Shown one piece after another: positions 9,157-52,302 of a stretch of 64,000 nt of DNA; position 1 is the first letter of the stretch, and every line of letters starts with the position of its first letter. Below the pieces are notes generated by a model. The model ran no database searches, had not been told where the DNA came from, and saw nothing but the letters and a program-made list of their open reading frames with translations. This DNA comes from Elusimicrobiota bacterium (GTDB lineage Bacteria > Elusimicrobiota > Elusimicrobia > UBA1565), in contig JBDRPD010000013.1 of assembly GCA_043827405.1 (NCBI GenBank), positions 32,990-96,989 on the forward strand. The letters run 5' to 3'. The translations under genes were made by a program, and so were the position numbers.

Positions 9157-11160
9157 ATGCGCAGGATCCTGGCGAGACAACTGGCTCTGTCTCTCGCGCT
9201 TTCCGGCTGGAGCGCCCCCCTGCGGGCCTACGCGGCCTGCCCTTCCGCCGCCGGCCTCAACCGCCTCGGGCAGCTGGCTCAGGGAGAACCCCTGCGGCAG
9301 GAAGACTTCCCGCTCACCCACAAGGCCTTGCGGCAGGCGCGCCCCGAATGCGGCGCCGACTGCTTCGCCGGTTTGCTGCTCGGCGGCGCCGACGGCGCGA
9401 TCCGCCTGACCCCGCCGGGAAAACAGCTCCTAATCCAGGCGGCCGCGCAATGCGCTCCGTACCGTTTTCTTCCCGCGGGGCCCCGTCCCGCCTTGCCGGC
9501 GAAGACGGTCGAGCTTCGCGGCGCCGGGACACCGCTGCGGAATCTGACGCAGCCGGACGGCGGCAGGTATTTCGACGGCGCCGCGGAGCTCAAGCCGGCG
9601 GTCGCGGTCGGCGCCGCACGGGGCGCATCCTACACCGCCGCCGTCATCCCGGCGCGCGTGACCGCGAAGCACTCCGGCCTGAGCCTCAACCGGGATCCGC
9701 CGGCTCCCGCGCTCGAATATCCTGAAGACATAAAAGCCAAGAAGGAGTTCTGGGGACGCCTCAAGGGGATGTTCGGCAGCATGGCATCGTTTTACGCGAA
9801 CCAGATCACGGGCGCCGGGACCTGGGTCCACGAGAAGGGCCATGAGATATTCATCCGTCTGCTGCACAACCCCAAGCATCTCGAGGTCCAGGTCGACGGC
9901 ATCGAGAATATGCGCAATGTGGGCCGCGCCCCCTCCTGGGACAGCCTGAAAAAATTCCTCGGCAGCCATGATACCCATCAGGACGGCGCCGCCGGCTACG
10001 CTTCCTACGGCGGCTTTCAGGATACGCCGCTCGGTACCCGGCTGGGAGATTCGGCCTCCACCGCGATCATCTCCGCCGCCGGCTCGCTGGCGCAGGACGT
10101 TCCCGCCATCGCCGGCTACGCTGCGGGCTTCATGCTGCGCAAGAAACATCCGGCGATCGGCTATACCCTAATGACCACCTCGATGATGAACCACTTCGTG
10201 AACTCGCTCTATTTATGGAGTGCCGTCGGCATGTCCGCCGAGCAGCTGGCTGCGGCCGGCCGTTCCGGCCATGACTGGGCCAAGTTCGCCACGGCGACCC
10301 AAATTCACCCCGTTATCACCGCGCTCGCCTTTACCGCGATCCTCCCGCTGGAAGCGCTGACGCTGCACTATGCGAGCAAGGCCTATGCCCGCAAAGTCAA
10401 CGATCGCCGCGCGCTCGGCAGCCTGATCGAAAAAGGAGATATCGCGGAAATCGACCTGCTGGCGCTCTACGAACTATATCCCGGGCGCGATAAGCTGCAG
10501 CTGGCGGAGGCCCGGCTGAGCGAGCTCATGCAGGCGTACGACAAGAAGCGGGGCGCTGAGTCGATAGCCGGCATGCAGGGCGCCGCCGGCATCGTGGCCA
10601 AGGAGTTTGAGAAGTTCCAGTCTTACGTGATCAAGACCTACCGCGCCGAACTTGACGCCGAAATCGAACGGCTGCCCAAAATAGAAAGAGAGACGCTGGC
10701 GAATGCGGTACGGCAGGTCAAGGCGTATTACCGCGCGCGCTACCGGGCCGACAAGCTGGGGACCGGCATGGAAGTCGGCACGATCGGCGTGGGCGCCGCC
10801 GCCGGCGTCGCCGCCGCCGCCAGGGCCGCGGGGCTCGCGGCGGCCGGCACGGCGCTCGAAGTAATGATCCCGGGCCTGGGCGCCCTCGGCGTGGCCTCCG
10901 GCCTGCACCGGACCCGTAAAGCGCTGCGCGACGCCTCGCTTAACGGCGTTGAAAAGACGCTGGCCGTAGTGCAGCATGCCAGCGGCGCCGTGGGCTCTTT
11001 GGGCATGATCACCGCCGAACCCCTAATGATGCTCGGCGGCATGGCGGGCTCGCTGACCGCCCTCGGCGCCCGCTGGCTCTACGGCAAGTGGCGGGAGCGC
11101 AAAGAACGGCTGCTGACCGCTTTCGCCGTCCCGCTTCTTCCCTGCCCCGCGTACGCCTAG
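9157..11160 (+). CDS. Exported protein: FDG-type leader, M50-like HExxH metalloprotease domain, C-terminal hydrophobic helices
   Basis: Signal peptide, YFDG at 9568-9579, WVHEKGHE, ISAAG, GHDW, Gly/Ala-rich hydrophobic C-terminus; GGAGGT RBS. Confidence 0.65.
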   Translation: MRRILARQLALSLALSGWSAPLRAYAACPSAAGLNRLGQLAQGEPLRQEDFPLTHKALRQARPECGADCFAGLLLGGADGAIRLTPPGKQLLIQAAAQCAPYRFLPAGPRPALPAKTVELRGAGTPLRNLTQPDGGRYFDGAAELKPAVAVGAARGASYTAAVIPARVTAKHSGLSLNRDPPAPALEYPEDIKAKKEFWGRLKGMFGSMASFYANQITGAGTWVHEKGHEIFIRLLHNPKHLEVQVDGIENMRNVGRAPSWDSLKKFLGSHDTHQDGAAGYASYGGFQDTPLGTRLGDSASTAIISAAGSLAQDVPAIAGYAAGFMLRKKHPAIGYTLMTTSMMNHFVNSLYLWSAVGMSAEQLAAAGRSGHDWAKFATATQIHPVITALAFTAILPLEALTLHYASKAYARKVNDRRALGSLIEKGDIAEIDLLALYELYPGRDKLQLAEARLSELMQAYDKKRGAESIAGMQGAAGIVAKEFEKFQSYVIKTYRAELDAEIERLPKIERETLANAVRQVKAYYRARYRADKLGTGMEVGTIGVGAAAGVAAAARAAGLAAAGTALEVMIPGLGALGVASGLHRTRKALRDASLNGVEKTLAVVQHASGAVGSLGMITAEPLMMLGGMAGSLTALGARWLYGKWRERKERLLTAFAVPLLPCPAYA

Positions 11161-11167
11161 GCGGAAA

Positions 11168-17533: not shown

Positions 17534-20044
<2,511 letters not shown>

Positions 20045-20051
20045 ACAGCCT

Positions 20052-22652
<2,601 letters not shown>

Positions 22653-22949
22653 TTATCCGTTCATCGTCCGGACCCCTTTGATCCAGGAACGCTTAAAATA
22701 TTTATTAAGACTCTTAACCAGCTGCATGCCGCGCATCTGGAGCTCATGCGCCGCCGCGGGCGAGCGCACCTTGACGCACAAAACGCCGCGCCGTATCCCG
22801 ATCAGGTTCCACTGCCGGGAGAACATTCCGACTTCATTCTCCCACACTTGGTTAAGAATAAGCATGCGCTCCGATTCGAGGCCGGAACGCCGGGTCCACG
22901 CACCGAGGATATCCCCGGCTTTCGCCATGCGGGGCTTTCGGCCGTCCAT
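22653..22949 (-). CDS. DciA/DUF721 family protein
   Basis: W...VG......GVL.V.V.SPA.AHELQM pattern; located between dnaN and gyrB. Confidence 0.75.
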   Translation of the reverse strand: MDGRKPRMAKAGDILGAWTRRSGLESERMLILNQVWENEVGMFSRQWNLIGIRRGVLCVKVRSPAAAHELQMRGMQLVKSLNKYFKRSWIKGVRTMNG

Positions 22950-22951
22950 TC

Positions 22952-24055
22952 TTACGCGCGCATCGGCATGACGACGTATTTATACCCTTCCGCGTTCTCC
23001 TGCTCTATCAGAACGGGGTTAACGGGCGTCGTCAGGCTGATAATGACCTTTTCCGACCCCATCGCCTTTAATCCATCCAGGATATAGCTCGGGTTAAACG
23101 CGATCACAAAATCATTGCCTTTGTATTCCGCCGGCAGCTCATCCTCGAACTCCAGGGTCTGACTGGAGGCGGAGACATTAAGCGCCCCCTTCTTCAGTTT
23201 AAACTTGATGGAACCGCCGCGGTCGGTAATGCAGAGCGATGCCTGCTTTGTTATCGTCATCAAGTCTTTGGTATTGAATTCGACCTGGATATCCTTCTTC
23301 GTCGGGATAACCTGTTCATAGTTGGGGAAGCTTCCTTCCACCAGCCGGGAAAGCATGGTCGTCGTATGGGTCTGAAACGCTACCTGGTTTTCCGTAATGC
23401 CGACAAGAATATCCTCTTTCTCATCACCGGCGCTCATCATCCGCAGATACTCGTGCAGAATTTTGGTCGGGATGATGGCGCGAAACTCCTTATCCTTCGG
23501 CAGAATATTCCGCTTCACCGCTGCGAGCCGGCGCCCATCGGTCGCGACCATCTCCAACGCACCGCCGGAAGCCGCCCAGAACACCCCGTTGAGCACATAG
23601 CGGGTTTCATCCGACGATGCGGCAAAGGCGGTACGGCGAATCATATCCCCCAGTTCGCCGAGGGCCACCGTAAAGGCTTTTTTCTTATCGAAATCAGGAA
23701 TAATGGGATACTCGGACTTCGGCGTACCGTTAATGATAAAGCGCGAGCGCCCGCACTTAATGAGCACGCGGTTCTCTTCGCTCATGGATAGAAAAATATC
23801 CTTCTCATCGGGCAGTGTGCGCAGGATATCTGAAAACTTCTTCGCGGGGATGGTTATACTTCCTTCCGTTTCTATATCCGCGTTCAAATAGTGCTTAACG
23901 CCCATCTGCAGATCGGTGGAAACCAGTTTCAGCTTGGAGTTTTCCGTTTCCATCAGGAAGTTCAGCAGTATCGGCAGGGTCGTACGGCCCGACAAGGCAC
24001 TCTGGATGGTTTGCACGCCCTTTAACAGTTCTTCTGTCCGACAATTGATTTTCAT
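22952..24055 (-). CDS. dnaN: DNA polymerase III beta clamp
   Basis: TLPIL, STDL, DETRYVLNG, VATDGRRL, FPNYEQVIP, VVMPMR. Confidence 0.97.
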   Translation of the reverse strand: MKINCRTEELLKGVQTIQSALSGRTTLPILLNFLMETENSKLKLVSTDLQMGVKHYLNADIETEGSITIPAKKFSDILRTLPDEKDIFLSMSEENRVLIKCGRSRFIINGTPKSEYPIIPDFDKKKAFTVALGELGDMIRRTAFAASSDETRYVLNGVFWAASGGALEMVATDGRRLAAVKRNILPKDKEFRAIIPTKILHEYLRMMSAGDEKEDILVGITENQVAFQTHTTTMLSRLVEGSFPNYEQVIPTKKDIQVEFNTKDLMTITKQASLCITDRGGSIKFKLKKGALNVSASSQTLEFEDELPAEYKGNDFVIAFNPSYILDGLKAMGSEKVIISLTTPVNPVLIEQENAEGYKYVVMPMRA

Positions 24056-24220
24056 ATTTAATCATCCTCTTCATCCAAGGATAATTGGATGTGGATAAAG
24101 CTCTAAAGTCTAATTTTATAAATCGCTTTTTTCGGCGCCGCCAAGTTGAAGTTATCCATCTTATGCACAAGGCGTTGGGTTATACCCAAAAACAGCCTTC
24201 CGCCTCACTGGTTTTCCACA
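24056..24220. other. oriC subregion between dnaA and dnaN
   Basis: DnaA boxes TGTGGATAA 24090-24098, TTATGCACA 24161-24169, TTTTCCACA 24212-24220; degenerate TTATCCATC 24152-24160 and TTATACCCA 24180-24188; AT tract near 24111-24123. Confidence 0.8.
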
Positions 24221-25557
24221 GAGCGTATATGTTCCGTCAGCTTGTTAACGTTCTCGACAAAAAACGGATCGCTGCCCAGCATCTTTTTTATCTTCTCGCG
24301 GGCATGAATAACGGTGGTATGATCCCGCCCGCCGAAGGCCTTGCCGATCTCCGTTGTCGACATGTCGGTCAGCGTGCAAGTCAAATACATCGCCAACTGG
24401 CGGGGAAAAGCGATTTCATTGGTGCGTGAGCGGGACTTCAGCATCTTTAAATCGATTGAATATTTATCGCAAACTTCGCGTTGGATCGTTTCCAGCCGGA
24501 TGACGGGCTCCGGATCGACGCCGATGGAATCCTTCAGCAGTTCCTTGGCGGTATCGACCGTCAAGGGATTACCCGTCAACGAGGCAAAGGCGCTAAGCCG
24601 GATGAGAGCGCCTTCCAGCGCGCGGATATTGGATTTTATCACCGTGGCGACAAATAAAATAATATCGTCTGGAACAAAAACCTTTTCCGATTCAGCCTTT
24701 TTCCGCAGGATGGCTATCCGCGTCTCGAGGTCGGGGGCCTTGATATCGGAGACGACGCCCCATTCCAGTCGAGAGATGAGACGCTGTTCGGACGGCGCCA
24801 TTTCTTTGGGCGCCCGGTCCGAAGCGATGACGATCTGTTTGCGGGAATCGAACAGCGAATTAAAGGTATAGAAGAACTCTTCTTCGCTGCGGCCCTTGCC
24901 GATCAGGAACTGAATATCGTCGATCAACAAACAGTCGAGGTGGCGGTATTTGCCGCGGAACTCCTCAGGTTTGTTGTAGCGCAGAGAGTCTATGTACTCG
25001 TTGACGAACTGTTCCGAGGTGGTATAGAGGACGCGCGAATGCGGCTGGCTTTTTCGCAGCTGATGGCCGATAGCGTGCATTAGGTGGGTCTTCCCGAGCC
25101 CGACACCGCCGTAAATGAAAAAGGGGTTGAACTGCCGGCCCGGGTTTTTAGCGATGGCTTCCGCGGTCGCATGCGCGAAACGGCTGGAAGGTCCGACGAC
25201 AAATGATGCGAACGTGTAGCGCGGGTTCAGCTCGCTCAGCGTGAATTCGGTTTGCGGCCGCGCTTCCGGCAGGGGATCCGCTTGCGGCAGAATACTGCTG
25301 AGATCTTTTTCTATATCGTAATCGATGCCGATCGATTTCCCGGTTATTACTTTCAAAGACGCTTCAATTTTCGGCTGATAATGATCCTTGATCCATTCAG
25401 CAAAAAACTTGTTGGGGACCTTCAAAATCAATCGCTGTTTGTCCAGGCTCATGGCTCGAACGGGCTTCAGCCAAAGCTCGACATTGTCATCGCCGATGTC
25501 GCTTCTGAGAGCCGCAACGACTTCGCTCCAGATGTCGGCTGCTGTATTATTGTTCAC
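24205..25557 (-). CDS. dnaA: Chromosomal replication initiator DnaA
   Basis: NPRYTF..FVVG, GGVGLGKTHL, LLIDDIQF, SNIRALEGAL, FGGRDHTTVIH. Confidence 0.98.
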   Translation of the reverse strand: MNNNTAADIWSEVVAALRSDIGDDNVELWLKPVRAMSLDKQRLILKVPNKFFAEWIKDHYQPKIEASLKVITGKSIGIDYDIEKDLSSILPQADPLPEARPQTEFTLSELNPRYTFASFVVGPSSRFAHATAEAIAKNPGRQFNPFFIYGGVGLGKTHLMHAIGHQLRKSQPHSRVLYTTSEQFVNEYIDSLRYNKPEEFRGKYRHLDCLLIDDIQFLIGKGRSEEEFFYTFNSLFDSRKQIVIASDRAPKEMAPSEQRLISRLEWGVVSDIKAPDLETRIAILRKKAESEKVFVPDDIILFVATVIKSNIRALEGALIRLSAFASLTGNPLTVDTAKELLKDSIGVDPEPVIRLETIQREVCDKYSIDLKMLKSRSRTNEIAFPRQLAMYLTCTLTDMSTTEIGKAFGGRDHTTVIHAREKIKKMLGSDPFFVENVNKLTEHIRSVENQ

Positions 25558-32418: not shown

Positions 32419-34226
<1,808 letters not shown>

Positions 34227-36637: not shown

Positions 36638-38110
36638 ATGCAAAAACGGAGTTTATCCCGCCGTCTATGGGTGTTGATTCTATGCTGTGCGCTGCCGGGC
36701 CACGGTTTCGCTTCCGGCATCGCCGCTTCGATTACGAATGCCGCCCGGCCTGCGGGGACCGCCGCCGGCGCCGCGGGGGCGGCGTATTGTGCGCCGACGG
36801 CTTTGCGGTCGCTGGAGTTTCAGCTTAACGAAACCGCGCTGCGTCTCGGAACGTCTTTGCCGGCCGCCGCAGCGGCACAATACTTGGCGCGTGCGGGGCT
36901 GGAAACCTCGGCGCCCACCCGCGAGCTGACGGCATCGGCGCTGACCGCACGGTACTTAAGCGGCGTGCTCGCCCGGCCGGTACTGCGCGCGCGGGTACGG
37001 TCGGTGCTGGAAAAGCGCGGGGGAACGCGCGGTGCTGAACTAGCGCATAGGCTGGAGGAGGTCGGGCGCGCGGTCGAGTCGCTGGCGGAGTTCCAGCAGC
37101 TGGCGGCGGACGCGGATTTTGCGCCGCAGAAAGAGAGTTTTCACCGCGCGCTGTTTGACGGGAGCGGGCCGGAGTTGGGGCCGGAGCGGTTCGCGCAGTA
37201 CGCGGCCCGGCTTTTCGCCGGCGGCGCGCTGCGGGCGCCGGCGGTAGCGGAAACCGGCCGGCAGGGCGGGCGCATTGAGGCGGTTCCCGAGGATCAGGAA
37301 TTGTATGACCGCGTTGAGCTGTCCCCTTTGACCAACCCCGAGCGGGAGCGGGTCGTTATCGATCTTTTTCATCGCGCCGGGGCGGCGGAGCGGGAGGTTC
37401 TGCTGCAGGACGCCGGGGACGGCCGCAATAATATCTATGTCGTGAAGCCGGGACGAACCGACCGGGTCGTGGTCGTGGGCGGCCACCATGACAAGGTCCG
37501 GCGCGGGGCCGGCACCATCGACAACTGGACCGGCGCGACCATGGTCGTCAATCTCTACCAGGCGCTCAAAGACGTCGATACGGAGGCGACCTACGTTTTT
37601 GTCGCCTTCGCGCGCGAGGAAGAGGGGCTGCTCGGCTCCAAGCGTTTTTTAAGCGCGCTGTCTCGTGCCGAGCAAAAGAAGATCGATTCGATGATTAATC
37701 TGGATACGCTGGCGGTGGATGGGACATTTTCCTGGCAGAATAATTCCGACCAGACGCTGCTGCGGATGATTAAGGAAACGGCGCGGCGAACGGGCCGCGC
37801 TCTTCAGGAAATGAGCCTATGGGGCGGGGACGCCGACTCCTCAAGCTTCCGCCGCGCCGGCATTCCGGCGATGACGGTCATGGGCGCGTCCAACAGCGTT
37901 ATCTGGGATATTGTCCACAGCGCCAATGATAATATCGCCGCGTTTTCGTTGCGCCACTACAAAAACGCCTATCTCTTGGTGCGGGACCTGCTGCTGGATA
38001 TCGACGGCAGCCCGGTGCGTCCTTCCGGCTGGCGGCGCTTGGCGCGCTGGGCGCAGCGCATGACCGCAGCGCTGTTTAGGCCGGCGCCTGGGATGCCGCC
38101 GGCAGGCTGA
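36638..38110 (+). CDS. Exported M28-family peptidase with FDG-type leader
   Basis: Signal peptide; LFDG 37151-37162; GGHHD, IDNWTG, FAREEEGL.GS, INLDT, DADS, HSAND. Confidence 0.8.
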   Translation: MQKRSLSRRLWVLILCCALPGHGFASGIAASITNAARPAGTAAGAAGAAYCAPTALRSLEFQLNETALRLGTSLPAAAAAQYLARAGLETSAPTRELTASALTARYLSGVLARPVLRARVRSVLEKRGGTRGAELAHRLEEVGRAVESLAEFQQLAADADFAPQKESFHRALFDGSGPELGPERFAQYAARLFAGGALRAPAVAETGRQGGRIEAVPEDQELYDRVELSPLTNPERERVVIDLFHRAGAAEREVLLQDAGDGRNNIYVVKPGRTDRVVVVGGHHDKVRRGAGTIDNWTGATMVVNLYQALKDVDTEATYVFVAFAREEEGLLGSKRFLSALSRAEQKKIDSMINLDTLAVDGTFSWQNNSDQTLLRMIKETARRTGRALQEMSLWGGDADSSSFRRAGIPAMTVMGASNSVIWDIVHSANDNIAAFSLRHYKNAYLLVRDLLLDIDGSPVRPSGWRRLARWAQRMTAALFRPAPGMPPAG

Positions 38111-38833: not shown

Positions 38834-39499
38834 ATGAACAAGCCTCACCCAGCGGTCAAGAACACGGCACCCGACATCCGGGCGGTCTTTTTTGATATTG
38901 GAAACGTGCTGCTGAAATTCGACGTCGGCGCCGTGCTGCGGCGTTTCGCCTGGGTCGTCCGCAGCCATCCGATGAAGGTGGCGCGCCTGCTGTGGTCGAG
39001 CAGGCTGTTTGACGGAGTAGAGCGCGGCGACATCACCTCGCGGCAGATTCACCGCATCTTTTGCGAGGACTTCGAATATTCCGGCAGCTTCGATGACTTT
39101 AAGAAGATTTGGTGCTACTCGTTCGAGCTGAACAAGGATACGGTCGGGGTGATGCGGCGGGTGCGCCGCCGGCGCAAAGTCTATCTCCTCTCAAATACGA
39201 ATAAGCTGCACTATGAGCACATTAGGGAACACTATGCCTTCGCGCGTCAGGTGAACGGCGCGGTGCTGTCCTACCGCCTGCGCGTGCGCAAGCCCGAGCC
39301 CGGAATTTATCACGCCGCGCTCAAGCGCGCGCGCGTTCAGGCGTCGCGGGCGCTGTTTATTGATGACCTGAAAGAGAACGTGGAGGCCGCCCGCAGCCTG
39401 GGCTGGCATGCGCTGCACTTTCGCGGGGCGAAGTCGCTGGAGCAGGACCTGTGCCGGCTGGGCGTGCTGCCGCGCGCTAGAAAACAATCGACAGCGTGA
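38834..39499 (+). CDS. HAD-superfamily hydrolase (subfamily IA)
   Basis: FFDIGNV, LSNTN, RKPEP.IY, FIDD...N. Confidence 0.9.
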   Translation: MNKPHPAVKNTAPDIRAVFFDIGNVLLKFDVGAVLRRFAWVVRSHPMKVARLLWSSRLFDGVERGDITSRQIHRIFCEDFEYSGSFDDFKKIWCYSFELNKDTVGVMRRVRRRRKVYLLSNTNKLHYEHIREHYAFARQVNGAVLSYRLRVRKPEPGIYHAALKRARVQASRALFIDDLKENVEAARSLGWHALHFRGAKSLEQDLCRLGVLPRARKQSTA

Positions 39500-40412
39500 A
39501 GTGCTGGAGGCTCCCCATGGCGGAGTTGCTTCCGAAGGCGTAGTCGAGTCCCACGATTCCTTGGCGGAACCCCACGCCGAACGTCAAGCCTTCCGTTTCC
39601 CGGTTGAAAATCCAGCCGCTGCGCAGCGCGATGCGGCCCGCCGACGGCGGCGTGAGGCCGATCTCAAGGCCCGCGCGCGGCGTGATCTTTTCATGCAGCA
39701 CGTGTACGTTGTCGAGGGTGACGGTGAGGTCGAACTCCTGCAGGTCGACGCTGGGGTCGATCTTGGCGGGGTCGATGTCCGGAAAACGGAAAGCCGCGCC
39801 GTAGCGCAGCGTTCGCGGCGACGGATCGCCGGCGCTTTCATAGGTGATGTCGGGACCCAGGAACTGGTAGGCGCCGCCGATCGAGAAGCCCTTCCAGGGT
39901 GCGCGCCAGAGAAAACCGAAATCCGTCTGGGAGGTGGTCGCCCGCGCGGTCTCGGCGAGCTCCAGCTGGATGAAGCGGTACGTCGCGCCCACATGCAGGC
40001 CGCCCGTCAGATGGCGGCCGCAGCTCAGCGCATAGGCCGTATTTTCTTCTGCGGTTACGGTTGTCTGCGTGCCGTCGGAGAGGTTGAGGTAGATTCGTCC
40101 GGCGTTGAAATAAAGCAGGCTCGCCGAGAACGTGGCCAGCGCCGTAGGATGGGCGTAGACGAAGTAGCCGTGCGTGGCGCCGCCCAGCCCCTTCATGTAT
40201 GAGGATGTGAAGGTTTTTTTGGTCAAGGTCCCGGCGGCGGCGGGGTTGTATTGCAGGGAGTCGGCGCGGTCCTGCACGGCGGTGAAGGCCGTGCCCATGG
40301 CGGCCGCTTGCGCGCCCATCGGCCGCTGGAGAAAGGGCGCCGCCGTCCGGCCGGACTCCGCCCCCGCCGGCAGGGCAAATAATACGATGATCGCCGTCAG
40401 CCGCAGGGTCAT
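39477..40412 (-). CDS. PorV/PorQ (UPF0164)-family outer-membrane beta-barrel
   Basis: FL..PMGAQAAAMG.AFTAV.D.A.SL.YNPA, LR.G, GVG, LDYA, C-terminal F. Confidence 0.85.
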   Translation of the reverse strand: MTLRLTAIIVLFALPAGAESGRTAAPFLQRPMGAQAAAMGTAFTAVQDRADSLQYNPAAAGTLTKKTFTSSYMKGLGGATHGYFVYAHPTALATFSASLLYFNAGRIYLNLSDGTQTTVTAEENTAYALSCGRHLTGGLHVGATYRFIQLELAETARATTSQTDFGFLWRAPWKGFSIGGAYQFLGPDITYESAGDPSPRTLRYGAAFRFPDIDPAKIDPSVDLQEFDLTVTLDNVHVLHEKITPRAGLEIGLTPPSAGRIALRSGWIFNRETEGLTFGVGFRQGIVGLDYAFGSNSAMGSLQHFTLSIVF

Positions 40413-41908
40413 TTGATGATTACGATTTTGCGGGTAACATTCGTTCCCGTGGCCTGGATATTGACGAGATAAACGCCGCTCGAAACAACATAGCCCGACA
40501 GCGTCCTGCCGTCCCAGTTCACCGAACTCAGACCGCTGGGCAGGTCCTCATCTACCAGGGTGCGGATGAGTTCGCCGTTCTGCGAGTACAGTCTAACCGA
40601 CACCCGGCCGGCTTCGTAGGTCTTGATGGATATCGTCGTCTGGCCGCCGTTTAGCGGGCGCAGCAGATTGTCGACCAAAGTGATTTCGGCGGGCGGCAGC
40701 GTCACATTGAGGACATTAGCCAGCGCTGCGATGACATAGTCGGAATTCATGACCTGAAGCGTCCAGAAGCCGGTTTTTTTACCCACCATGCTCATAGTGC
40801 CGGACAGCGATAGGTCGCTGTTGCGCGTCAGCGTCACGGCTCCGGTGGAATCGCCGGTGGTATATAGGGAGATCGTCGGCGGGGGGTCCGAGAACATCTC
40901 CCCCGTGATGGTGAAGTCGAAGCCGGCGTTGCCGCTTTGCACCGAGCCGGGCGTAAAGGCGGAGAGTGTCGGGCTTGAGCTGAAGGCGCTGGCGACCGCG
41001 GTATTGGTCGCGCCGTTAACGCCGTAGGAATAGAACATGCGCCAGCGCCAGCTTTCGGTGGAGCGTACGACAACGGGATAGCTCAGCGCCGCCGTCCCGG
41101 AGGCGGTGGAGAAGCGGATGCTGCTGGTCTCAACCGAGAAAGACTGACTGCCGGAAGACGCTATGACCGATAATATTTGGCTGCCCGTGGTCTCTCCGGT
41201 CAGCGGCGAGGTGTAGTAGAGACGGGTCCGCCCATCGGTCAGGCTGGTTACCGAGACCTGATAAGCGATCTCGGAGGCCAGCAGGGGGCCGTCGGTATTG
41301 AAGTCGATGTCGTTGCTTGAAGAAGCCGTATGGATGCGGTAGCTGGAGCGGGTATTGCCGCCGTCTTTGTCCGCGGCATAGTAGAGGCGGATAAGACCGC
41401 TCGATTCGGGAAAAGGCCGCGGCGAATCGAGAAAGCCGAGGCCGTTGTTGCTGATAATGTGGGTGCTGACTGTTTTTGACCAGGCCAGCCCGTCGGTCGA
41501 GGTAGCGCTGAGAATCCGATAGAGGCCCAGTGAGCTGATCCCGACATAATACATGCGCATATAGTCGGAGGTATTAGTAGAGACATAAATGCCGCAGGAG
41601 GTGATTGAGGAATAATCGACGTCGTTGGCTGGGTCTGTGGAGAGCCGGACACCGGCCTCGAGCGTCCAGCTGAACAGATCGTTGGAGGTCGCCGACAGTA
41701 TCTGGTAGCTGCCGCTGGTGAAATACATGCGGTATTGACCGCCGCTCTTTGGCAAGATGGCCTGTACCGCATTGCCTGTCGTGGAGGAAAGGATGACGCC
41801 GCTGTCCGCCCGGAACGGAATAGCGCCGGCCTCCGCCGGCGCCAGGAGGCAGGCGGCAAGGCACAGCCACGCCAGAGCATGTTTCGCCCGGTGGATCAGC
41901 ATATTCAT
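40409..41908 (-). CDS. Exported beta-propeller protein with Ig-like domain and C-terminal FlgD-Ig/T9SS-CTD-like domain
   Basis: Repeated R(M/L)Y(F/Y)...I.SA.S.D blades; C-terminus GELIRTL..WDGRT.SG..V.SGVYLV.I..KIVIIK; start uncertain (41902-41923). Confidence 0.75.
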   Translation of the reverse strand: MNMLIHRAKHALAWLCLAACLLAPAEAGAIPFRADSGVILSSTTGNAVQAILPKSGGQYRMYFTSGSYQILSATSNDLFSWTLEAGVRLSTDPANDVDYSSITSCGIYVSTNTSDYMRMYYVGISSLGLYRILSATSTDGLAWSKTVSTHIISNNGLGFLDSPRPFPESSGLIRLYYAADKDGGNTRSSYRIHTASSSNDIDFNTDGPLLASEIAYQVSVTSLTDGRTRLYYTSPLTGETTGSQILSVIASSGSQSFSVETSSIRFSTASGTAALSYPVVVRSTESWRWRMFYSYGVNGATNTAVASAFSSSPTLSAFTPGSVQSGNAGFDFTITGEMFSDPPPTISLYTTGDSTGAVTLTRNSDLSLSGTMSMVGKKTGFWTLQVMNSDYVIAALANVLNVTLPPAEITLVDNLLRPLNGGQTTISIKTYEAGRVSVRLYSQNGELIRTLVDEDLPSGLSSVNWDGRTLSGYVVSSGVYLVNIQATGTNVTRKIVIIK

Positions 41909-41968
41909 TAAACGACGGGGCACCCGCGGGCGAACCCACGGGTATCTACTCGGCGGGGTGCTGGTGGT

Positions 41969-44679: not shown

Positions 44680-45858
44680 ATGAGAATACTGCTGCGTATG
44701 GTTGTCGGCGCGGCGCTGCTGCTGCCTTCGGGCGCCGGCGCGGCGTCCGCCGCCGTTGTCGCCGCGGCCGCGAAGGCCGTGCGTCCGGGGGCCGTGATGC
44801 CGATACCCGGAGCCGCCCTGCGCGTTCCCGCCGCCGGCATCATGAATAAAACGATGGCGTCGCCGCTGCTCGGCGCCGGCGTCCTGCCGTCCTTGCCGGG
44901 CGTTCGCGTGGACGGCGTGAAGCTCGACCAGGCCTCGGTCCTGCCGTCGGTGAAGATGCTGCCGGCGCCGCTGACCCTGAAGGCGGCGGGCTCCGTGCTG
45001 CCGGCACCGCTTAAGGACAAGAAGGCGGCGGCCGGCGTGCGCGGCCGGCTGCGCGCGGCGGAGAAGGGCGTCGCCAAGTCGGTCAAAACCGGCGCCTTCC
45101 AGGCGGCGCGCAGCAAGCTCGGCGAGCTCTTTGACGGGCTCAAGGGGCGCGGCGCCAATGCGGTGTCCGGAACCGCTGACTTTCGACCGCCGAACGGGCC
45201 GGAAGACCGGCGCATCAACCGCGCGCTTGCGCGCCTGGCGGATTCGCCGGTGGGCCTGGATCTCTACACCTATGTCTACCAGAACTACAACCTGGAAATT
45301 ATGGTCGATGATGACCGAAACGCGAGCTATGATGCGCGGCTCGATCGCGGCAGCGGCCGGGATATTCTCTATCTGACCAGGAGCCTGGTGAATAATGAGT
45401 CCAAGGAGGTCGTCGCCGCCTACATCGCGCGGGAGATGTCGGACCTCTACTTCGAGACCTTCCCCGAGTCCGCCGAACGCGGGTATATGGCCTACAGCAA
45501 TATGGTCCGGGTCTTCGCCGAGCTGACCGACAGCGGCCTGGCGCGCTACGGCCACTGGTGGGACACCGGAAAGGACCAGCGGGTCGACGGGGCCTATGCC
45601 ATGGAGCGCTACTACGGCAGCTGGAAGGAGGCGGTCCATGACTATTATTACGCTGGCCGGTCCATCCAGCGCTCGCCGTTCTTCGGTTTTCTAAAGCAGA
45701 GCGATGATTCCAATGCGGGGAGCGCTTCGCACCGTAGCCTGTCTGAGCGCTACCGGCGCGGGGAGATAACCTATCGCCGGTACTACGAGATGAAGGATTA
45801 CTTTAAGCGGATGGTCGACAGCGAGACCGAATGGATCGGAGATACCGGCCGCTGGTAG
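44680..45858 (+). CDS. Exported hypothetical protein with FDG-type leader
   Basis: AGGAGG RBS; signal peptide; Ala/Pro/Lys-rich leader ending LFDG (45127-45138); Tyr/Asp/Arg-rich globular C-domain. Confidence 0.8.
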   Translation: MRILLRMVVGAALLLPSGAGAASAAVVAAAAKAVRPGAVMPIPGAALRVPAAGIMNKTMASPLLGAGVLPSLPGVRVDGVKLDQASVLPSVKMLPAPLTLKAAGSVLPAPLKDKKAAAGVRGRLRAAEKGVAKSVKTGAFQAARSKLGELFDGLKGRGANAVSGTADFRPPNGPEDRRINRALARLADSPVGLDLYTYVYQNYNLEIMVDDDRNASYDARLDRGSGRDILYLTRSLVNNESKEVVAAYIAREMSDLYFETFPESAERGYMAYSNMVRVFAELTDSGLARYGHWWDTGKDQRVDGAYAMERYYGSWKEAVHDYYYAGRSIQRSPFFGFLKQSDDSNAGSASHRSLSERYRRGEITYRRYYEMKDYFKRMVDSETEWIGDTGRW

Positions 45859-45868: not shown

Positions 45869-47515
45869 GTGATGAATATGAGGAAGCTGATATTTTCCGT
45901 GCTCGCGGCGGCATGCGTTTTCGCGCCCCGCGCCAGCGCCGAAACGTGGCAGCGTATCGCCGGTTTCGACAGCGGCATCCGGCAGGTCCGGACCGTCGCG
46001 GTGAAGGATGGGGCGGCCTGGGCGGAGCTGTGGGCGGAGCATACGCGGGGGATGGCGGCCGCTCCGGCGCTTCCCCAAGTCGACTTCGCCAGGGAAACCA
46101 TCGTCGCGGTGTTCTTGGGCGAGCGGCGGCGGGGCGGGCATGTCATCGAGCTGCAAACGAAGCCCAACCCGCAGAATCCGGCCGAGCTGGTGGTGACATT
46201 CGGGGAAAAGAAGCCGGATGCCGCCTTCGGCATTGCCCTGATGAACTATCCCTACGAGATCAGGAAGCTCAATCATGCGTATGCCAAGGTGCGCTTCATC
46301 GCGCCGCAACGTACGGCGGTGGTTTATGAAGCGGCGGAGCCGCTGTCCGAAAAGCCGGCGCCCGCCGTCCGCGTCCGGTTGGCGCGGGCGGAAGTCGCGC
46401 GGCTCAGCGGCGGACTCGGCGCCATGACGGCGCAGAAGTCGCGGACGGTATTTGATGGCGGGGCGCTGCGTGACGCGATGAGCGGCTCGGTCATGGCGGA
46501 AACATCGGCGCGGCTGCTGCCCGCGGCGCTGCCTCCTCCCCCCGGCAAGGGTGAGAAGAAGGCGGACCAGGGCAAGAAGAAGCTGCCGCCGCCGCCGAAA
46601 AAAGACGGCAAGCCGCTGCCGCCGCCGCCGAAGGAAGACGGCAAGCCGCTGCCGCCGCCGCCCGCCCGGACTTTGCCCAGGCCCATCTATCCGGGCGGTC
46701 CGCTGCCGGAGGATGATCTGCGCCTGCGGAAGGCGGAACGGACCTATTCGACCTACGACATGAGCTATGTCGGTTATTGGCATGACGGCTGGGGCTATGA
46801 GAGCGAGAGCGGCCGGGTCGTTACCTCGCCCCGGGACCGGGGCTCATATGTTCTCAACCTTACGAGCGGCAAGTATCAGTACTATGTCGAGTTCTACTAC
46901 GCCAAGTCGTCGGACTCGATCTATTATACCCGCACCAAAAAACGGATCGGCGGCAGATCCCGCCTCCTGATGGTGGAGTTCGCGGACCGCGATACCAAGC
47001 CGCTGCTGCCGTGGGAGAGTGAGACTTTTGTCTTCTCGCTTAAGGACACCACGGTCTCCCTGGAATCGGCCAGCGGCGCCTACCAATACGACATCACGTA
47101 TTCATTCTCGGCGCAGGACAAGTCCACGGTCTACATTACGCTGACCCCCGGCGGCAAGATCAAGACCGCGCCGGACGCGGGGGCCGTCGGCGCGGGCATC
47201 AAGCTCTATGGTTCGGACCTTAAGCTTGTAGTGACCGACAAGTGGGCGCAGTACTACGCCGGCGAGGAGCTCGAGGTCAGCGTCAGCATCAAGAAAGAGG
47301 TCGGGATGAGCTGGCGTAATCCGCTCGGCATCGACCCCGTCATTTATGACGGCAGGCTGAAGATGCCGGCGCAGAAATCCGGAGAGCTGTTCCTTAAGAG
47401 CGCGCTGGACCGGGGGACTTACTACATCTCGTCATGGTCCTTCCGCCGGGTCGATAGTGCGATAAGCGGAAGCGGATGGGTTTCCAAAGGCGGGGGGAAT
47501 GCCGTCACCAAATAA
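45869..47515 (+). CDS. Exported protein: PrcB-C-like domain, FDG motif, proline repeats, beta-rich C-terminal region
   Basis: W..LW.EH...P.VDF..E..VAVFLGER..GG..I (PrcB_C-like); VFDG 46448-46459. Confidence 0.75.
   Translation: MMNMRKLIFSVLAAACVFAPRASAETWQRIAGFDSGIRQVRTVAVKDGAAWAELWAEHTRGMAAAPALPQVDFARETIVAVFLGERRRGGHVIELQTKPNPQNPAELVVTFGEKKPDAAFGIALMNYPYEIRKLNHAYAKVRFIAPQRTAVVYEAAEPLSEKPAPAVRVRLARAEVARLSGGLGAMTAQKSRTVFDGGALRDAMSGSVMAETSARLLPAALPPPPGKGEKKADQGKKKLPPPPKKDGKPLPPPPKEDGKPLPPPPARTLPRPIYPGGPLPEDDLRLRKAERTYSTYDMSYVGYWHDGWGYESESGRVVTSPRDRGSYVLNLTSGKYQYYVEFYYAKSSDSIYYTRTKKRIGGRSRLLMVEFADRDTKPLLPWESETFVFSLKDTTVSLESASGAYQYDITYSFSAQDKSTVYITLTPGGKIKTAPDAGAVGAGIKLYGSDLKLVVTDKWAQYYAGEELEVSVSIKKEVGMSWRNPLGIDPVIYDGRLKMPAQKSGELFLKSALDRGTYYISSWSFRRVDSAISGSGWVSKGGGNAVTK
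46571..46663 (+). repeat. Three tandem 33-36 bp coding repeats (GK(P/KK)LPPPPK(K/E)D)
   Basis: Units at 46571-46606, 46607-46639 and 46640-46663 (partial). Confidence 0.9.
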
Positions 47516-48501: not shown

Positions 48502-51500
48502 TTACTTCTTCTGCTTGGGTTCCAGCAGGGTTTCGGGCAGCCCCGGCAGGCGCTTGGGTGCGGCGAAGAACAGCAGCCCCGCGAGCAGGTAGAAGACGCC
48601 GAGCACGCCCAGGAACGCCGGGAACGCCGGGTTCATCAGGCTGGTGGCCAAGGCGAGGATGCCGTAGCCCCCCGCGACCGCCGCGTTGAAGAACGAGCTT
48701 TGCACGCCGCCCATGGAGCCGCTCTTGTCGCGGGCGGCATTGCTGAAGAAGTAGCCCATCAGCGTGGTATAGGCGGGGCCGAAGGCCATGCCGATGCCCA
48801 ACACCGCCAGCATCATCGCGGTTGTGGCGGGGATGAAGGGGAACATCCCCAGGCCCCAGACCAAGTAGGGAATCCAGACGCCGGCAAAGCCGACCCCCAC
48901 AAACTTCAGCCAGGCCCGCTTGGTGAGCTTGCTGGCCATGGCGATCATGCCGCCGATCACGGCGCCGGCGATAAGCGCGGCGATGAGGCTGCCGGCGAAC
49001 AGGCCGGTGTAGACCCAGGTCATGCCGAGGCCGACGACCACGGCCTGAATGATGCGATGCAGCGCCACGCGGCCGATGAGCGGAATCTTGACCTCGCCCA
49101 GCTTCGCCTGCGCGGCGTTGGATATAAGGTTGCCGAAGAACAGCGCGCCCAGAAGCTGGCCCATAAGCAGCGCCTTGCCTTCAGCCCCGACCAGAAGAAC
49201 CGCGATTTTGGGCAGGGCCAGGTACTGGAAGGGATACATCATCATGGCGATCAAAGACAGCATGAGCAGGGCCTTGGGCAGGCGGCTCTTCCAGCGCGAG
49301 AGCTCGGTTTTCCACGAAGCCTTCGGCGCTGCGCCGGCTTTCTTGGCCGCCGCGATCTTGTCGGCTAATTCCTTTTCGCGGGCGGTGACATCCGAGCCCT
49401 TGCCGTACCACATGACTTTAAAGCCGGTCGTCGTCGTTATCCAAAAGAGCAGCGAGCCGATAATGGGCAAAGTCGAATTAAACAGGAAGTAGCCGCCTAT
49501 CCCGGCGGCCAAGAGCGTTGACGGGAGCCAGTTGCGGCGCAGGAACTTCGCCAGCTTGAGGAGGCGGTCCTTGAAGGTTAGAACCTCTCGCGCCAGCTCA
49601 GCCTTGAATCCAAGTATCGTTTTCTCGCGCAGGTCGACATCGGCCTGCAGGGATTTCATCTCCGCCCAGCGGTTCCAGCGCGCCCGCAGGCCCTTGGGCG
49701 TCTGGGCCTCGAGCTGGGCCAGGTCGCTCTTGGCCTCCGCGATGACGGCCTCGTTGTCCGCGATGCTCTTATTGAGGAAGCCTTCGCGGTCGCTGATCGA
49801 CTTCTTGATCTCCTCGATCTCGGCCCGGTCGGAGCCCTTGGCGTCCTGCAGCTTTTTGCGGCGCGCTTCCATTTTCTGAATGGTTTTGGGCTGCGGCGAG
49901 AGGGTCGGCATGGTGAACCAAAGGATCGGCAGGACGATCACGGCGTTGACGATGGCGTTGATCCAGAACGCCGTCATCGGGTTCCACTGATCGACGATAG
50001 TGCCGATGCCGAGAATAAGCCCGAGAACTACCTGGATGGCCAGGTAGTTCATCCAGGCCAGGTTGCCGACCATGAAGACGTTTTTGGCGCCGGCCAGCCG
50101 CTTGATATAGGAGTTCTCCGTGGTCATGATCGAGGAGAGCAGCCAGCCGTTGACGAAGGAGCCGATCAGCAACGTTCCAAAGTTTAGGTAGCCGAACATC
50201 GCCAGTACCGGCAGGAGCAGGCTCGAGAGCACCCGGATGACGGTGTTGAGCGCCATGCCGTTGCGCGCCGACAGGCGGTCGGCGATCAGGCCGTTAAGCG
50301 GTCCGGCGGCGATGGCGGCCAGCGGCCCGAAAGACATCAGCAGGCCGTAGGTGGCCCAGGCGGCGGGATTGGTCGCGCCGCCGAAGGCGCCGACAACGAG
50401 AAAGGGATAAGCGATAGAAGTCAGGATGAAGGCGGCGATGGAAGCCGTGCGCTGGGCGAAGAGTCCGATGACGGCCTTCTTGTTCATCTCGCTGGGCGCC
50501 TGCTTGCCCAGAGCCTGCAGGATTTCACGCGAGGCTTCGGCGCCTTCGGTAGGCCAAACCACAACATTCTCGAGCCGCGGATCGGCCTTGCCGCCCACCG
50601 AGATGGCGAGCGCGCCGGGTGAGGCGTAAACGAAGCCCATGTCGGCGGTGCGCATGTCGAAGAACTGGTCGCCGACCGACAGCGTCTTGGACAGCCCTAC
50701 CGGCCGTTTGACCAGCATGTTAACGGCTTTCCAGGCGGCCTTGGCGAAGCGTGCGGGCAAGCCGAAGCGGAGCATATCCTTAACCTGTTCGATGGCGCGG
50801 CGGTTGGCGCGCAGCGGCAGGACGCCGGTCCGTTTGTCGATCTTTGAGACGGTCATGTACGGAGCGTCCACTTCCGGGTTGCGGGCGATGCGCGGGGTCA
50901 CGGTAAACGGAACGTTGCGGGCGAACAGCTCTTCCTGCAGCTTTTCGGCGGCGTCGCGCACCGCCTGCTCCGACCAGCCCAGCGGCAGGAAGTGCGCATA
51001 GCTGTAGGATTTAAGATCGTACGTCTTGCCGTTGACGGCCTGCTCGCCTTTGGCGCTGCCGTCCTTGTGGTAGCCGTAATGATCGAGGAATGCCTGCCGC
51101 GCCTGCAGAATGCCGGCTTGCTCGGCTTCAGTCCAATGGACGGCGCTGCCGGTCTCTTCACGTACCAGCACCGGCTCGCCCTTGCGGTTGTAGAGCAAGG
51201 TCCGGGTACCGCGGCTGGAGACCAAAGTCAGGGACTGCTTCTGCGCCAGCGTAAGCGGGGTTAGTGAATCGACGATGGTGACATCCTGCTCCCGCTTCTT
51301 GGCGTCGGGCCGGTCGGTGAGAATGATGGGTTCGACGCCGGCGTCGGCCGCGGCCTTGAGCGCCTCGCCGGTCTCGGGAGAGATCGGCGTGTTAAACGGC
51401 GCCAAAGTGTCGTCGTAGTCGAAGAAGGCTTCTTCCGGCTTGTCTTTTTCCAGCTTCTGCAGGATCGCGTCGGCATGGGCCCGGGTAATCGGGCGCAGCG

Positions 51501-52302
51501 AGCGCAGCTCGCCGAAATCTTCGGCCAGGGCTTTAAGCGCCGTGCGGTGGATCTCATAGTCGGCGGCGCCGCCCTTCGGGTTGGCGTCGGCGATGCGCGA
51601 GAGCGCCGCCTGCGTCTCGGCGCCCCCCTGCTTGATAATGGCCTTGACCGCGCTCCGGCGTTCATCCTGCGGCTTTGCGGAGTCGACCGCTATAGCCTCG
51701 AGGTCGCCGATGGTGAGTTGGGAAAGTCCGGAATCAGCGGCGGCTTGATCGGCGGCGTGAACAAAATCGCCGCTGCCCTTGCGGGAGCGCGCGCCGGAGA
51801 AAAGGGATTTGAGCGCGCTGAAGCGCCCGGTCGTTCCCGCGGCCTGGTCGATCTTCTGGACGCCGTCCTGCAGGGTGCTTTTTACCGCAGGCTTGGCTTG
51901 GGCGGAGCGGCCGGCGGTGTCCGCCGCCGGCGCGGAGACCGTATTTTTTAATTTAGTTTTGACCGGCCCTTCAACGACCGCGACATGCGAGGGGGCGACG
52001 GTCACCGTCTTGGCATGGCCGGAAGTTATCGTTTCGCCGCCGACGCTCGGCAGGCCGGGCAGGCCCTGGGACAAGGAATTGGAGAGCTTGAGATTCTGCA
52101 GCGCGGAGGAGGTGTTGATGCCGCCGATCGCGGCGGCGCCCGCATTGCCGGGGATGCTGCTGACCGGCGCTGCCTTGGCGCGAATAACGGTCGCGGCGGC
52201 TTGCACGGCGAACGGCCCGGGCGCGGCGACGATCAAGGCCGCACATAGGGCCGTGCTAAGGATTTTAATGAAAAGTGTTTGTTTTTCTTTGAAGGAAGTC
52301 AT
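48502..52302 (-). CDS. Large fusion protein: signal peptide, FDG-type leader, helical domain, HAD-IIB-like phosphatase, MFS-like transporter
   Basis: LFSG 51793-51804; FFDYDDTL, LTDR, SVGDQF..D; MFS motif A GLIADRLSAR; about 12 TM segments split by a coiled coil. Confidence 0.78.
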   Translation of the reverse strand: MTSFKEKQTLFIKILSTALCAALIVAAPGPFAVQAAATVIRAKAAPVSSIPGNAGAAAIGGINTSSALQNLKLSNSLSQGLPGLPSVGGETITSGHAKTVTVAPSHVAVVEGPVKTKLKNTVSAPAADTAGRSAQAKPAVKSTLQDGVQKIDQAAGTTGRFSALKSLFSGARSRKGSGDFVHAADQAAADSGLSQLTIGDLEAIAVDSAKPQDERRSAVKAIIKQGGAETQAALSRIADANPKGGAADYEIHRTALKALAEDFGELRSLRPITRAHADAILQKLEKDKPEEAFFDYDDTLAPFNTPISPETGEALKAAADAGVEPIILTDRPDAKKREQDVTIVDSLTPLTLAQKQSLTLVSSRGTRTLLYNRKGEPVLVREETGSAVHWTEAEQAGILQARQAFLDHYGYHKDGSAKGEQAVNGKTYDLKSYSYAHFLPLGWSEQAVRDAAEKLQEELFARNVPFTVTPRIARNPEVDAPYMTVSKIDKRTGVLPLRANRRAIEQVKDMLRFGLPARFAKAAWKAVNMLVKRPVGLSKTLSVGDQFFDMRTADMGFVYASPGALAISVGGKADPRLENVVVWPTEGAEASREILQALGKQAPSEMNKKAVIGLFAQRTASIAAFILTSIAYPFLVVGAFGGATNPAAWATYGLLMSFGPLAAIAAGPLNGLIADRLSARNGMALNTVIRVLSSLLLPVLAMFGYLNFGTLLIGSFVNGWLLSSIMTTENSYIKRLAGAKNVFMVGNLAWMNYLAIQVVLGLILGIGTIVDQWNPMTAFWINAIVNAVIVLPILWFTMPTLSPQPKTIQKMEARRKKLQDAKGSDRAEIEEIKKSISDREGFLNKSIADNEAVIAEAKSDLAQLEAQTPKGLRARWNRWAEMKSLQADVDLREKTILGFKAELAREVLTFKDRLLKLAKFLRRNWLPSTLLAAGIGGYFLFNSTLPIIGSLLFWITTTTGFKVMWYGKGSDVTAREKELADKIAAAKKAGAAPKASWKTELSRWKSRLPKALLMLSLIAMMMYPFQYLALPKIAVLLVGAEGKALLMGQLLGALFFGNLISNAAQAKLGEVKIPLIGRVALHRIIQAVVVGLGMTWVYTGLFAGSLIAALIAGAVIGGMIAMASKLTKRAWLKFVGVGFAGVWIPYLVWGLGMFPFIPATTAMMLAVLGIGMAFGPAYTTLMGYFFSNAARDKSGSMGGVQSSFFNAAVAGGYGILALATSLMNPAFPAFLGVLGVFYLLAGLLFFAAPKRLPGLPETLLEPKQKK

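Follow-up and report, generated by a model that had tools for sequence, protein, structure and literature searches.

A shared leader on unrelated exported proteins points to a candidate sorting pathway in an order of Elusimicrobiota

In a 64,000-nucleotide stretch of contig JBDRPD010000013.1 from an uncultured groundwater bacterium of the Elusimicrobiota (positions 32,990–96,989; hereinafter, the window), five open reading frames (ORFs), here named by the position at which they begin (9157, 36638, 44680 and 45869 on the plus strand, 52302 on the minus strand), combine signal-peptide-like starts with an FDG motif, or a variant thereof, in front of different cargo domains. The original prediction that such proteins carry a modular, lineage-specific sorting leader is supported by the present analysis: in the source genome (G000; 4.33 Mb, 98% complete; other G numbers denote comparison genomes), the leader heads a family of at least 68 proteins with unrelated cargos (64,699 residues, 5.0% of the called coding sequence), and it is found in 95 of the 101 genomes of the order. 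We consider it likely that this leader and an operon encoding a candidate SecA-like motor form one sorting pathway, and give about even chances to the further proposition that the leader marks proteins for a delivery pathway of their own, present in one order of Elusimicrobiota and a small number of neighboring lineages, whose substrates reach another cell.

The shared region consists of a signal peptide and a leader of 100–150 residues with three elements: a GAAG-like stretch (element A; 49 of the 68 members, against a mean of 19 and a maximum of 28 in shuffled sequences), an xLPs element, i.e., LP followed by a small residue (element B; 58 members, against a mean of 20 and a maximum of 30), and a helix with [FWY]DG (element C). 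FDG itself is present in 24 members and the looser form, [FWY]D[GASN] or FSG, in 41, at a median position of 158; FDG is not the signal itself but one of three elements, and a less common one than A or B. The signal peptides show a basic n-region and a hydrophobic h-region, an AxA-like site was identified heuristically in 63 of the 68 members, and a PG..Y.A.A tail is frequent, which suggests a signal peptide of the Sec type with predicted cleavage by signal peptidase I. A Pfam scan of 66 leaders gave no match over the curated cut-off (best E-value 0.004) and no family common to more than one member, and an Atlas search with the leader of 44680 returned no usable match. By its median insertion score (5.2 versus 1.9), the GAAG stretch does not resemble a membrane segment; a role as a hairpin membrane tether was considered and ruled out because the stretch is too polar.

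Across the whole genome, FDG is not enriched (268 occurrences against 220 expected), and for this reason the genome-wide count was dropped as evidence in favor of a test conditioned on the leader. The family was delineated without FDG, from 41 seeds selected by a signal-peptide heuristic, leader composition and eye (one of them came from a motif-guided list), and a profile of seed residues 1–100 retrieved another 21 proteins with scores of at least 20 bits. FDG is present between residues 100 and 260 in 7 of these 21 held-out proteins (a set that retains three proteins later dropped as non-members), compared with 31 of 902 cytoplasmic proteins (p about 1e-5) and 21 of 513 other signal-peptide proteins (p about 4e-5), the latter showing no enrichment over the cytoplasmic ones. 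The control sets are noisy, given that the gene calls came from a hexamer model of ours and the signal-peptide calls from a permissive heuristic rather than SignalP; at least one family member (C30:5719) was overlooked by these calls. FDG was further found in 20 of 62 family proteins, with a shuffle mean of 1.3 and a maximum of 6, and in two of six runs a motif sampler started without seeds ranked aaa.l..lFDG first.

Element C is kept in all eight orthologs of 44680, and [FY]DG in both orthologs of 9157 and in all seven two-domain orthologs of 45869 (18 homologs aligned). Among the M28 peptidase orthologs (31 distinct sequences with a recognizable start, from 47 loci), 17 have FDG and 24 the looser form. 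At the 29 adenylate kinase (ADK) loci, two of which are poorly scored, FDG precedes the enzyme in five and the looser form in about six more, and at least ten have a short leader without FDG. Orthologs that keep the leader but not the motif, named in the original prediction as evidence against it, are therefore seen in part, among the adenylate kinases, whereas the orthologs of 44680, 9157 and 45869 keep the motif.

The depletion of cysteine is a marker of the family that is independent of sequence motifs. There are 14 cysteines in 61,639 residues of the leader family (0.023%), compared with 0.62% across the remaining signal-peptide proteins and 1.25% across the cytoplasmic ones, and 59 of the 68 members, including proteins of 5,435, 4,027 and 3,386 residues, have none. 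The content is similarly low in 82 database matches (0.034%) and in the M28 orthologs (2 cysteines in 12,726 residues), and in 18 pairs of a leader-bearing copy and a plain paralog, the leader copy has fewer cysteines in 12 cases, the same number in 4 and more in 2. Low cysteine content is known for proteins that are threaded unfolded after periplasmic transit (PMC8151025).

The cargos, 38 of which produced Pfam matches among 66 queries, fall into hydrolases (M3, M28, M48, M50, S8, S41, trypsin, CAAX, endonuclease I, EEP, RNase II, PLD and amylases), nucleotide-dependent proteins of cytoplasmic type (ADK, PPK2, glycogen synthase, two ClpB-like ATPases, LonB, MoxR, uridine kinase/cytidine deaminase, HD, Fic and ATP-grasp) and inner-membrane proteins (five MFS transporters, an ABC exporter, SDF and MscS). 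Wherever Walker and KTGG motifs were detected, they are intact. Leaderless paralogs (26–44% identity) exist for most of the recognizable cytoplasmic-type cargos, among them ADK, PPK2, GlgA, ClpB, RNB, MoxR and the ABC exporter, and the leader-bearing ADK is present in 28 of 61 genomes of the order. Although about half of the cargos contain membrane segments, there are none between the signal peptide and the enzyme in ADK, PPK2, GlgA, LonB, RNB and one ClpB. Surface display, one of the roles originally envisaged, is accordingly unlikely for most cargos, which need ATP or a cytoplasmic membrane. In the MFS cargos, motif A is kept in six of seven proteins (degenerate in some) and the basic loops lie on the N-terminal side, so that the leader should face a cytoplasm despite the preceding signal peptide. 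This is a conflict of topology, as judged from sequence: the signal peptide is predicted to send the N-terminus out, whereas the transporter appears to be built for an N-terminus that faces a cytoplasm.

A candidate machinery was found beside the gene for the largest cargo (5,435 amino acids, aa) in G000. This operon encodes a TadG-like protein (recognized by motif only), a TadE-like protein (E-value 9e-4, below the Pfam cut-off), an additional FtsH with an intact HExxH, Gly-rich hairpin membrane proteins, three proteins outside any family and a 3,018-aa protein; a transposase-like gene and then the giant cargo gene follow. In G000, the operon is split over two contigs that overlap by 141 bases; synteny is retained in G013, G007 and G017 and, in part, in G018. 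There are 2–6 hairpin proteins in the operon and 11–14 paralogs in G000 (copies outside the operon are located at C52:10881, C52:12651, C23:13280, C1:218, C1:1946, C30:475, C22:32945 and C14:1948), and several of these paralogs carry E..a...[FWY]D[GSA] ahead of the hairpin. The gene between the motor and the giant cargo (C22:50879-51733, 284 aa) occupies this position in G000, G013, G007, G017 and G302, with 44–55% identity; it presumably resembles REP-type tyrosine transposases, a likeness noted by eye, and is probably domesticated.

In the 3,018-aa protein (encoded at C22:51959), a signal peptide of the leader type is followed by YDG at residue 185, six cysteines at residues 226–391 and none thereafter, a Gly-rich, weakly hydrophobic region at about residues 725–1,040 and the SecA-like domain at about residues 1,400–3,018. 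It is certain that this protein is an ATPase of superfamily 2 (SF2), and probable that it is of the SecA type. Six blocks of its SF2 motifs are colinear with the SecA of the same genome, all its Atlas matches are SecA clusters (best 0.92), and SecA is the top Foldseek match of a model of its last 499 residues (predicted TM-score, pTM, 0.69), with low TM-scores of 0.26–0.30. VIA-align ranks Snf2/DEAD ATPases first and the hhalign match to SecA is weak; PDB sequence searches returned nothing significant, and neither did the phmmer comparison with the genome's own SecA.

A complete Tad locus (C83:127190-135895) encodes the Flp pilin, RcpC, a secretin, TadA and TadB/C, and in G017 the leader operon lies directly behind homologs of the regulators that follow the Tad locus in G000. 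This genome further has 20 ATPases of the T2SSE family (PilB/PilT/TadA) over the cut-off, 3 secretins and 6 Omp85 proteins. The export gate of type III secretion systems (T3SS) and flagella, SctV/FlhA (PF00771), and the sheath of type VI secretion, VipB/TssC (PF05943), were not found in G000, in searches with positive controls in 4 of 14 and 1 of 14 cases, respectively. The C-terminal domain (CTD) of type IX secretion (T9SS) substrates, or FlgD_ig, had no match in the 66 cargo queries at an E-value of 1e-5 (other window proteins have one), and a search of G000 for the T9SS translocon SprA gave no match, its control being silent too.

The original prediction suggested a search for co-occurring machinery by phylogenetic profiling, and the operon with its SecA-like motor is such a candidate. 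At an E-value of 1e-4, the leader profile matches 23 of 251 genomes of the phylum, some of the positive genomes having themselves supplied leaders to the profile, and the motor is present in 21 of the 251 and in 82 of the 101 genomes of the order (53 of 59 high-quality ones). Across the phylum, 21 genomes have both, 2 the leader only, none the motor only and 228 neither; within the order, where leader counts per genome are minimum values, the respective numbers are 81, 14, 1 and 5 (Fisher p 8e-4, a value overstated by the kinship of the genomes). Twelve of the 14 leader-only genomes are under 90% complete, and G229 turned motor-positive when a profile was used. The informative cases are the joint absences of leader and motor in three separate lineages (G018, which retains only the N-terminal part of the motor, genus g21 and G036) and G302, a held-out genome of another order, for which leaders were predicted from the motor and 11 leader matches were then found; as in G000, the motor of G302 adjoins the giant cargo.

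A search of 1.84 billion representative sequences with the leader profile gave 132 matches, nearly all N-terminal, 104 of them outside our own set. Of the 79 long matches, 52 are homologous to G000 cargos, and the remaining 27 contribute domains such as MutS-like, lysine-decarboxylase-family and CheR (Pfam matches in 10 of the 27). Among ten database matches looked up, one is from Elusimicrobiota and two are false (a Hyphomicrobium protein and a eukaryotic protein), one of the false ones having been picked as suspect. The FDG rate among the matches of this search (40 of 97) was left out of the tests, being partly circular in view of the FDG columns in the profile (A1). For the M28 gene, 22 of 23 loci with relatives are named as Elusimicrobiota.

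Taken together, the cargo set, the topology, the cysteine content and the operon keep effector delivery, as originally suggested, the best reading, and we propose the following pathway. The Sec-type signal peptide with its AxA-like site would take the chain out of the producer's cytoplasm; the acid-poor leader, rich in Ala, Gly, Pro and Ser, would stay unfolded and be recognized by the operon proteins, with the helix and FDG as an optional docking or cutting site, similar motifs being present on the hairpin proteins and the motor. The cargo would be threaded unfolded, possibly through putative pores formed by the Gly-rich regions, and driven across by the SecA-like motor, which might push from the producer's cytoplasm or pull from inside the target; we propose that the cargo was purged of cysteine because of this mode of passage. 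Within the target, proteases, nucleases, amylases and a phospholipase would digest the contents, ADK and PPK2 would regenerate ATP, ClpB and Lon would refold or trim proteins, and the MFS, ABC, SDF and MscS proteins would insert with the N-terminus in and release small molecules. Whether the destination is the cytoplasm and cytoplasmic membrane of another cell appears to us evenly balanced; if so, the target would most likely be a prokaryotic prey or host, given that eukaryote-type interaction domains (ankyrin, LRR, F-box) are absent from the Pfam matches of the cargos. Because the cargo would both leave the producer and enter a second cytoplasm, with ATP and N-in insertion, this single reading accounts jointly for the common leader with its optional FDG, the types of cargo, the conflict of topology, the cysteine depletion, the operon and its co-occurrence with the leader.

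Several observations weigh against this scheme. To our knowledge, there is no known host, prey or culture. Neither DsbB nor VKOR was found in G000, and the signal-peptide proteins, a noisy set, show no bias toward even numbers of cysteines (129 even versus 165 odd), so that the usual ground for cysteine avoidance, the formation of disulfides in the periplasm, is unsupported in the producer, and the explanation of the cysteine loss by its disulfide machinery was rejected; an oxidant outside the producer, or some other cause, may be responsible. Some ADK orthologs have a signal peptide followed by merely 28–64 residues ahead of the enzyme. In G193 and G194 (97 and 99% complete), there are 2–3 leader matches and no motor was found even by profile, G187 has the motor and no leader matches, and in family f8 the leader profile matches the signal-peptide part only; the kinship of the genomes, noted above, belongs here as well.

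An extended version, which we entertain only tentatively, holds that the cell exports its own translocon, such that the pore-plus-SecA protein inserts into the membrane of the partner and imports dozens of cysteine-free enzymes and transporters, tagged with the leader, on the partner's ATP. The partner would thus become a managed feeding compartment, and the giant proteins of Omnitrophota would be a fused form of the same system, an equally speculative corollary.

It seems rather unlikely that the same sorting pathway ends instead in an ATP-containing compartment of the producer itself, be it an energized periplasm or an internal digestive compartment. Such a destination would suit the lack of a known host, the self-contained cargo set (hydrolases and exporters together with ADK/PPK2 and ClpB/Lon) and the persistence in G018, without the motor domain, of a nearly leaderless ADK with a signal peptide. 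However, the MFS cargos have canonical polarity, with leader and enzymes on the cytoplasmic face, and this would be reversed if they were inserted into the producer's inner membrane once the signal peptide had been cut off; in addition, the pilins linked to the operon are of the Tad type, which faces outward.

The proposal that the cargos are ordinary periplasmic or surface enzymes, with the leader as a propeptide, spacer or anchor, FDG as a maturation site and the operon link as shared ancestry, we regard as improbable. Many cargos are indeed proteases, elements resembling FDG are also seen in exported proteins that contain cysteine and in two putative cell-wall hydrolases (see below), and the leader varies from 28 to 174 residues among ADK orthologs without an inserted domain. 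Nevertheless, one and the same leader heads unrelated folds, transporters included, and ATP-dependent enzymes that would lack a substrate outside; the joint losses of leader and motor and the held-out G302 also speak for a functional connection. Docking of FDG as part of a propeptide was rejected, given that FDG lies in a low-confidence linker of the M28 model.

Nor is it probable that the hydrophobic N-terminus is an uncleaved membrane tether, so that leader and cargo remain in the producer's cytoplasm, even though this would explain the ATP-dependent cargos and the N-in transporters without export and would fit the membrane segments in about half of the cargos. The basic n-region predicts an N-in, C-out orientation, and a second membrane segment is missing behind it; furthermore, the AxA-like site is nearly ubiquitous, cysteine is about 50-fold less frequent than in cytoplasmic proteins and also below the level of the cargos' cytoplasmic paralogs, and normally exported families (endonuclease I, S8, S41, trypsin-PDZ) are among the cargos. 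Finally, the notion that low-complexity sequence in a GC-rich genome gave rise to both FDG and the leader by chance, to which the lack of genome-wide FDG enrichment and the false matches of low-complexity profiles (2 of 10) might lend some credence, is refuted by the held-out enrichment and shuffles, orthologue conservation, the motif-independent cysteine depletion and the taxonomic restriction, and has next to no probability.

With regard to the window proteins, all five signal-peptide-like starts and the motif positions F139, F173, F151, F195 and F168 were verified, whereas the Ala/Pro/Gly-rich leader predicted for four of them was recovered in 36638, 44680 and 52302 but not in 9157, which has element C only. 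Leader-profile scores are 78–110 bits for the first three, which belonged to the training set of this profile, 17.2 bits for 45869 and 9.8 bits for 9157; when held out, 36638 was recovered at 39 bits. The cargo labels likewise fared unevenly: Pfam matches bear out M28 (36638) and MFS (52302), HAD is weak (Hydrolase_3, E-value 0.006, with a DxDxT motif at residue 295 of 52302), and the M50-like and PrcB-C-like assignments have no matching Pfam family, there being no match at an E-value of 0.01 for 9157, 44680 and 45869.

The 490-aa protein 36638 (36638..38110, plus strand) is a leader-family member with a signal peptide, element A (GTAAGAAGAA, residues 40–49), element B (GTSLP, 71–75), a helical insert, FDG at 173 (37154..37162, plus strand) and an M28 peptidase domain at 265–449. 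In its AlphaFold model (30 sequences, pTM 0.76), the local confidence score (pLDDT) is below 50 at residues 20–49 and 165–177, so that FDG sits in the linker and is not folded onto the enzyme. The family member 44680 (44680..45858, plus strand; 392 aa, no cysteine) has a signal peptide, element B (VLPSLPGV, 68–75), FDG at 151 (45130..45138, plus strand; the element kept in all eight orthologs) and, as cargo, a conserved Tyr/Trp-rich domain outside any Pfam family. This cargo contains a helix with A(R)E[MF][ST]D at what we take to be the position of HExxH in zincins, and is possibly an inactive zincin-like fold. The third member, 52302 (48502..52302, minus strand; 1,266 aa), is cysteine-free after the signal peptide and has element A (GNAGAAAIG), element B (GLPGLPSV), FSG at 168 (51793..51801, minus strand; FSG or FTG in two database orthologs), a HAD-like domain and an MFS transporter with motif A in the canonical N-in position.

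The exported, cysteine-free 45869 (45869..47515, plus strand; 548 aa), which adjoins 44680 in relatives too, has only element C (FDG at 195), located after a folded N-terminal domain, and is not a full member of the family. The 667-aa exported membrane protein 9157 (9157..11160, plus strand), with one HExxH and only element C (FDG at 139), is a borderline member; four cysteines lie within its first 100 residues, and its two orthologs have none there. Elsewhere in the window lie dnaA-dnaN-gyrB-gyrA (17534-25557, minus strand), which probably mark the replication origin region, a gene for a PorV-like barrel, coupled to one whose protein has a C-terminal domain of FlgD-Ig/T9SS-like type (39477-41923, minus strand), and an alpha-2-macroglobulin gene followed by PBP1c (53757-61965, plus strand), the usual pair.

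Related motifs occur in other exported proteins of G000. A second class has [NSD]FDQG and a helix directly after the signal peptide and, unlike the leader family, 2–10 cysteines (C53:180354, C54:33541, C54:39637, C54:105597, C76:2527, C83:188491 and C83:191072); one of these proteins has a domain in common with the C-terminus of 45869. Two lipoprotein-like putative cell-wall hydrolases (C82:11268, L100, and C39:90759, L101; amidase_2 and peptidase M15, respectively) have the helix and FDG at about residue 90, the other leader elements being absent. Three short exported proteins (C82:5256-5840, C23:17656-18219 and C91:37985-38617) are almost leader-only or end in the FDG element (…LDGLFDGE); they are possibly decoys, adaptors or regulators of the pathway.

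If the proposed pathway exists, a metabolic and digestive toolkit would be delivered into another compartment, most likely another cell, which would assign a lifestyle to a whole order of groundwater and soil bacteria. The question of the Omnitrophota giant proteins would also become testable, because the SecA-like domain, the cytoplasmic enzymes and the Tad genes are here small, separate and expressible genes. Even if one of the rival explanations holds, there is a sorting tag without explanation on 5% of a proteome.

Searches of the literature on Elusimicrobia and Elusimicrobiota for motifs, secretion, predation and SecA, with poor coverage of subscription papers, found no description of the leader or the operon, which suggests that the pathway is undescribed. 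In the available text of a 2020 survey of free-living Elusimicrobia, the strings "secret", "pili" and "symbio" are absent, and the accessible part of a sludge secretome survey mentions Elusimicrobiota only for few extracellular proteins in small genomes (PMC11495043).

The Omnitrophota giant proteins share with our system signal peptides and divergent SecA domains, HAD, starch synthase, lysine-decarboxylase-family and AAA_5 domains, many membrane segments and adjoining type II secretion or Tad genes; a predatory role has been proposed for them, their function being unsettled (bioRxiv 10.1101/2023.11.21.568195; 10.64898/2026.06.07.730766). However, their parts are fused into polyproteins whose lengths run from 10,000 to more than 100,000 residues, whereas here mostly separate genes each have a leader; a shared leader is not described in the parts of these reports available to us, and "cysteine" and "Elusimicrob" are absent from that of 10.64898/2026.06.07.730766. 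In family f8, a SecA-like domain is found inside ORFs of 4,256 and 6,078 aa (G129:C65:7395, L213, and G163:C15:79041, L214), and the giant proteins of this family begin with the same type of signal peptide as the leader family; they possibly form a bridge to the polyproteins of Omnitrophota. In a phototrophic consortium, giant proteins have been reported to pass, by other means, into the cytoplasm of a partner bacterium (10.64898/2026.03.19.712371).

The Kil system of Myxococcus xanthus resembles the proposed pathway in combining a Tad pilus and extra minor pilins with proposed contact-dependent effector delivery, but works with a needle-less T3SS, the export gate of which was not found here, and the text available to us mentions neither a SecA-like motor nor a leader for Kil (PMC12428579). 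Type V passengers likewise undergo Sec export and then unfolded passage and are low in cysteine (PMC8151025); the corresponding features, a C-terminal beta-barrel or an N-terminal TPS domain, had no Pfam match in our cargos or leaders. Substrates of Tad and type II systems are generally secreted folded and lack a linear leader; in the family described here, the linear leader and the cysteine loss may point to an unfolded passage.

In its mode of action, the pathway would most resemble the accessory Sec system (SecA2/SecY2) of Gram-positive bacteria, where the serine-rich repeat proteins have a signal peptide and an Ala/Ser/Thr-rich AST region, and a second, dedicated SecA-type motor is encoded beside a giant substrate (PMC6973325). 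By its substrates, it nevertheless departs from that system, its cargos being enzymes and transporters rather than serine-rich repeat proteins with an LPXTG anchor. Moreover, the motor itself bears a signal peptide and a hydrophobic region rich in Gly, about 68 unrelated cargos take the place of one adhesin family, and the host is a diderm. SecY2, Asp1-5 and Gtf had no Pfam match in the nine operon proteins scanned in addition to the TadE-like and FtsH ones, two operon genes being unscanned and no genome-wide search having been made.

Known bacterial delivery systems move toxins and regulators, and we know of none that moves ATP-regenerating enzymes, chaperones, storage-polymer enzymes and transporters under one label resembling a transit peptide. 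Bipartite leaders are known in eukaryotes, namely, the signal and transit peptides of apicoplast proteins and, in Plasmodium, PEXEL together with PTEX, a translocon that includes an exported motor of the ClpB type. By functional analogy only, with no homology implied, the Elusimicrobiota leader would resemble these systems in coupling a signal peptide to an acid-poor, unstructured leader, in directing cytoplasmic-type enzymes and transporters to a second compartment and in employing an ATP-driven motor that pulls unfolded cargo.

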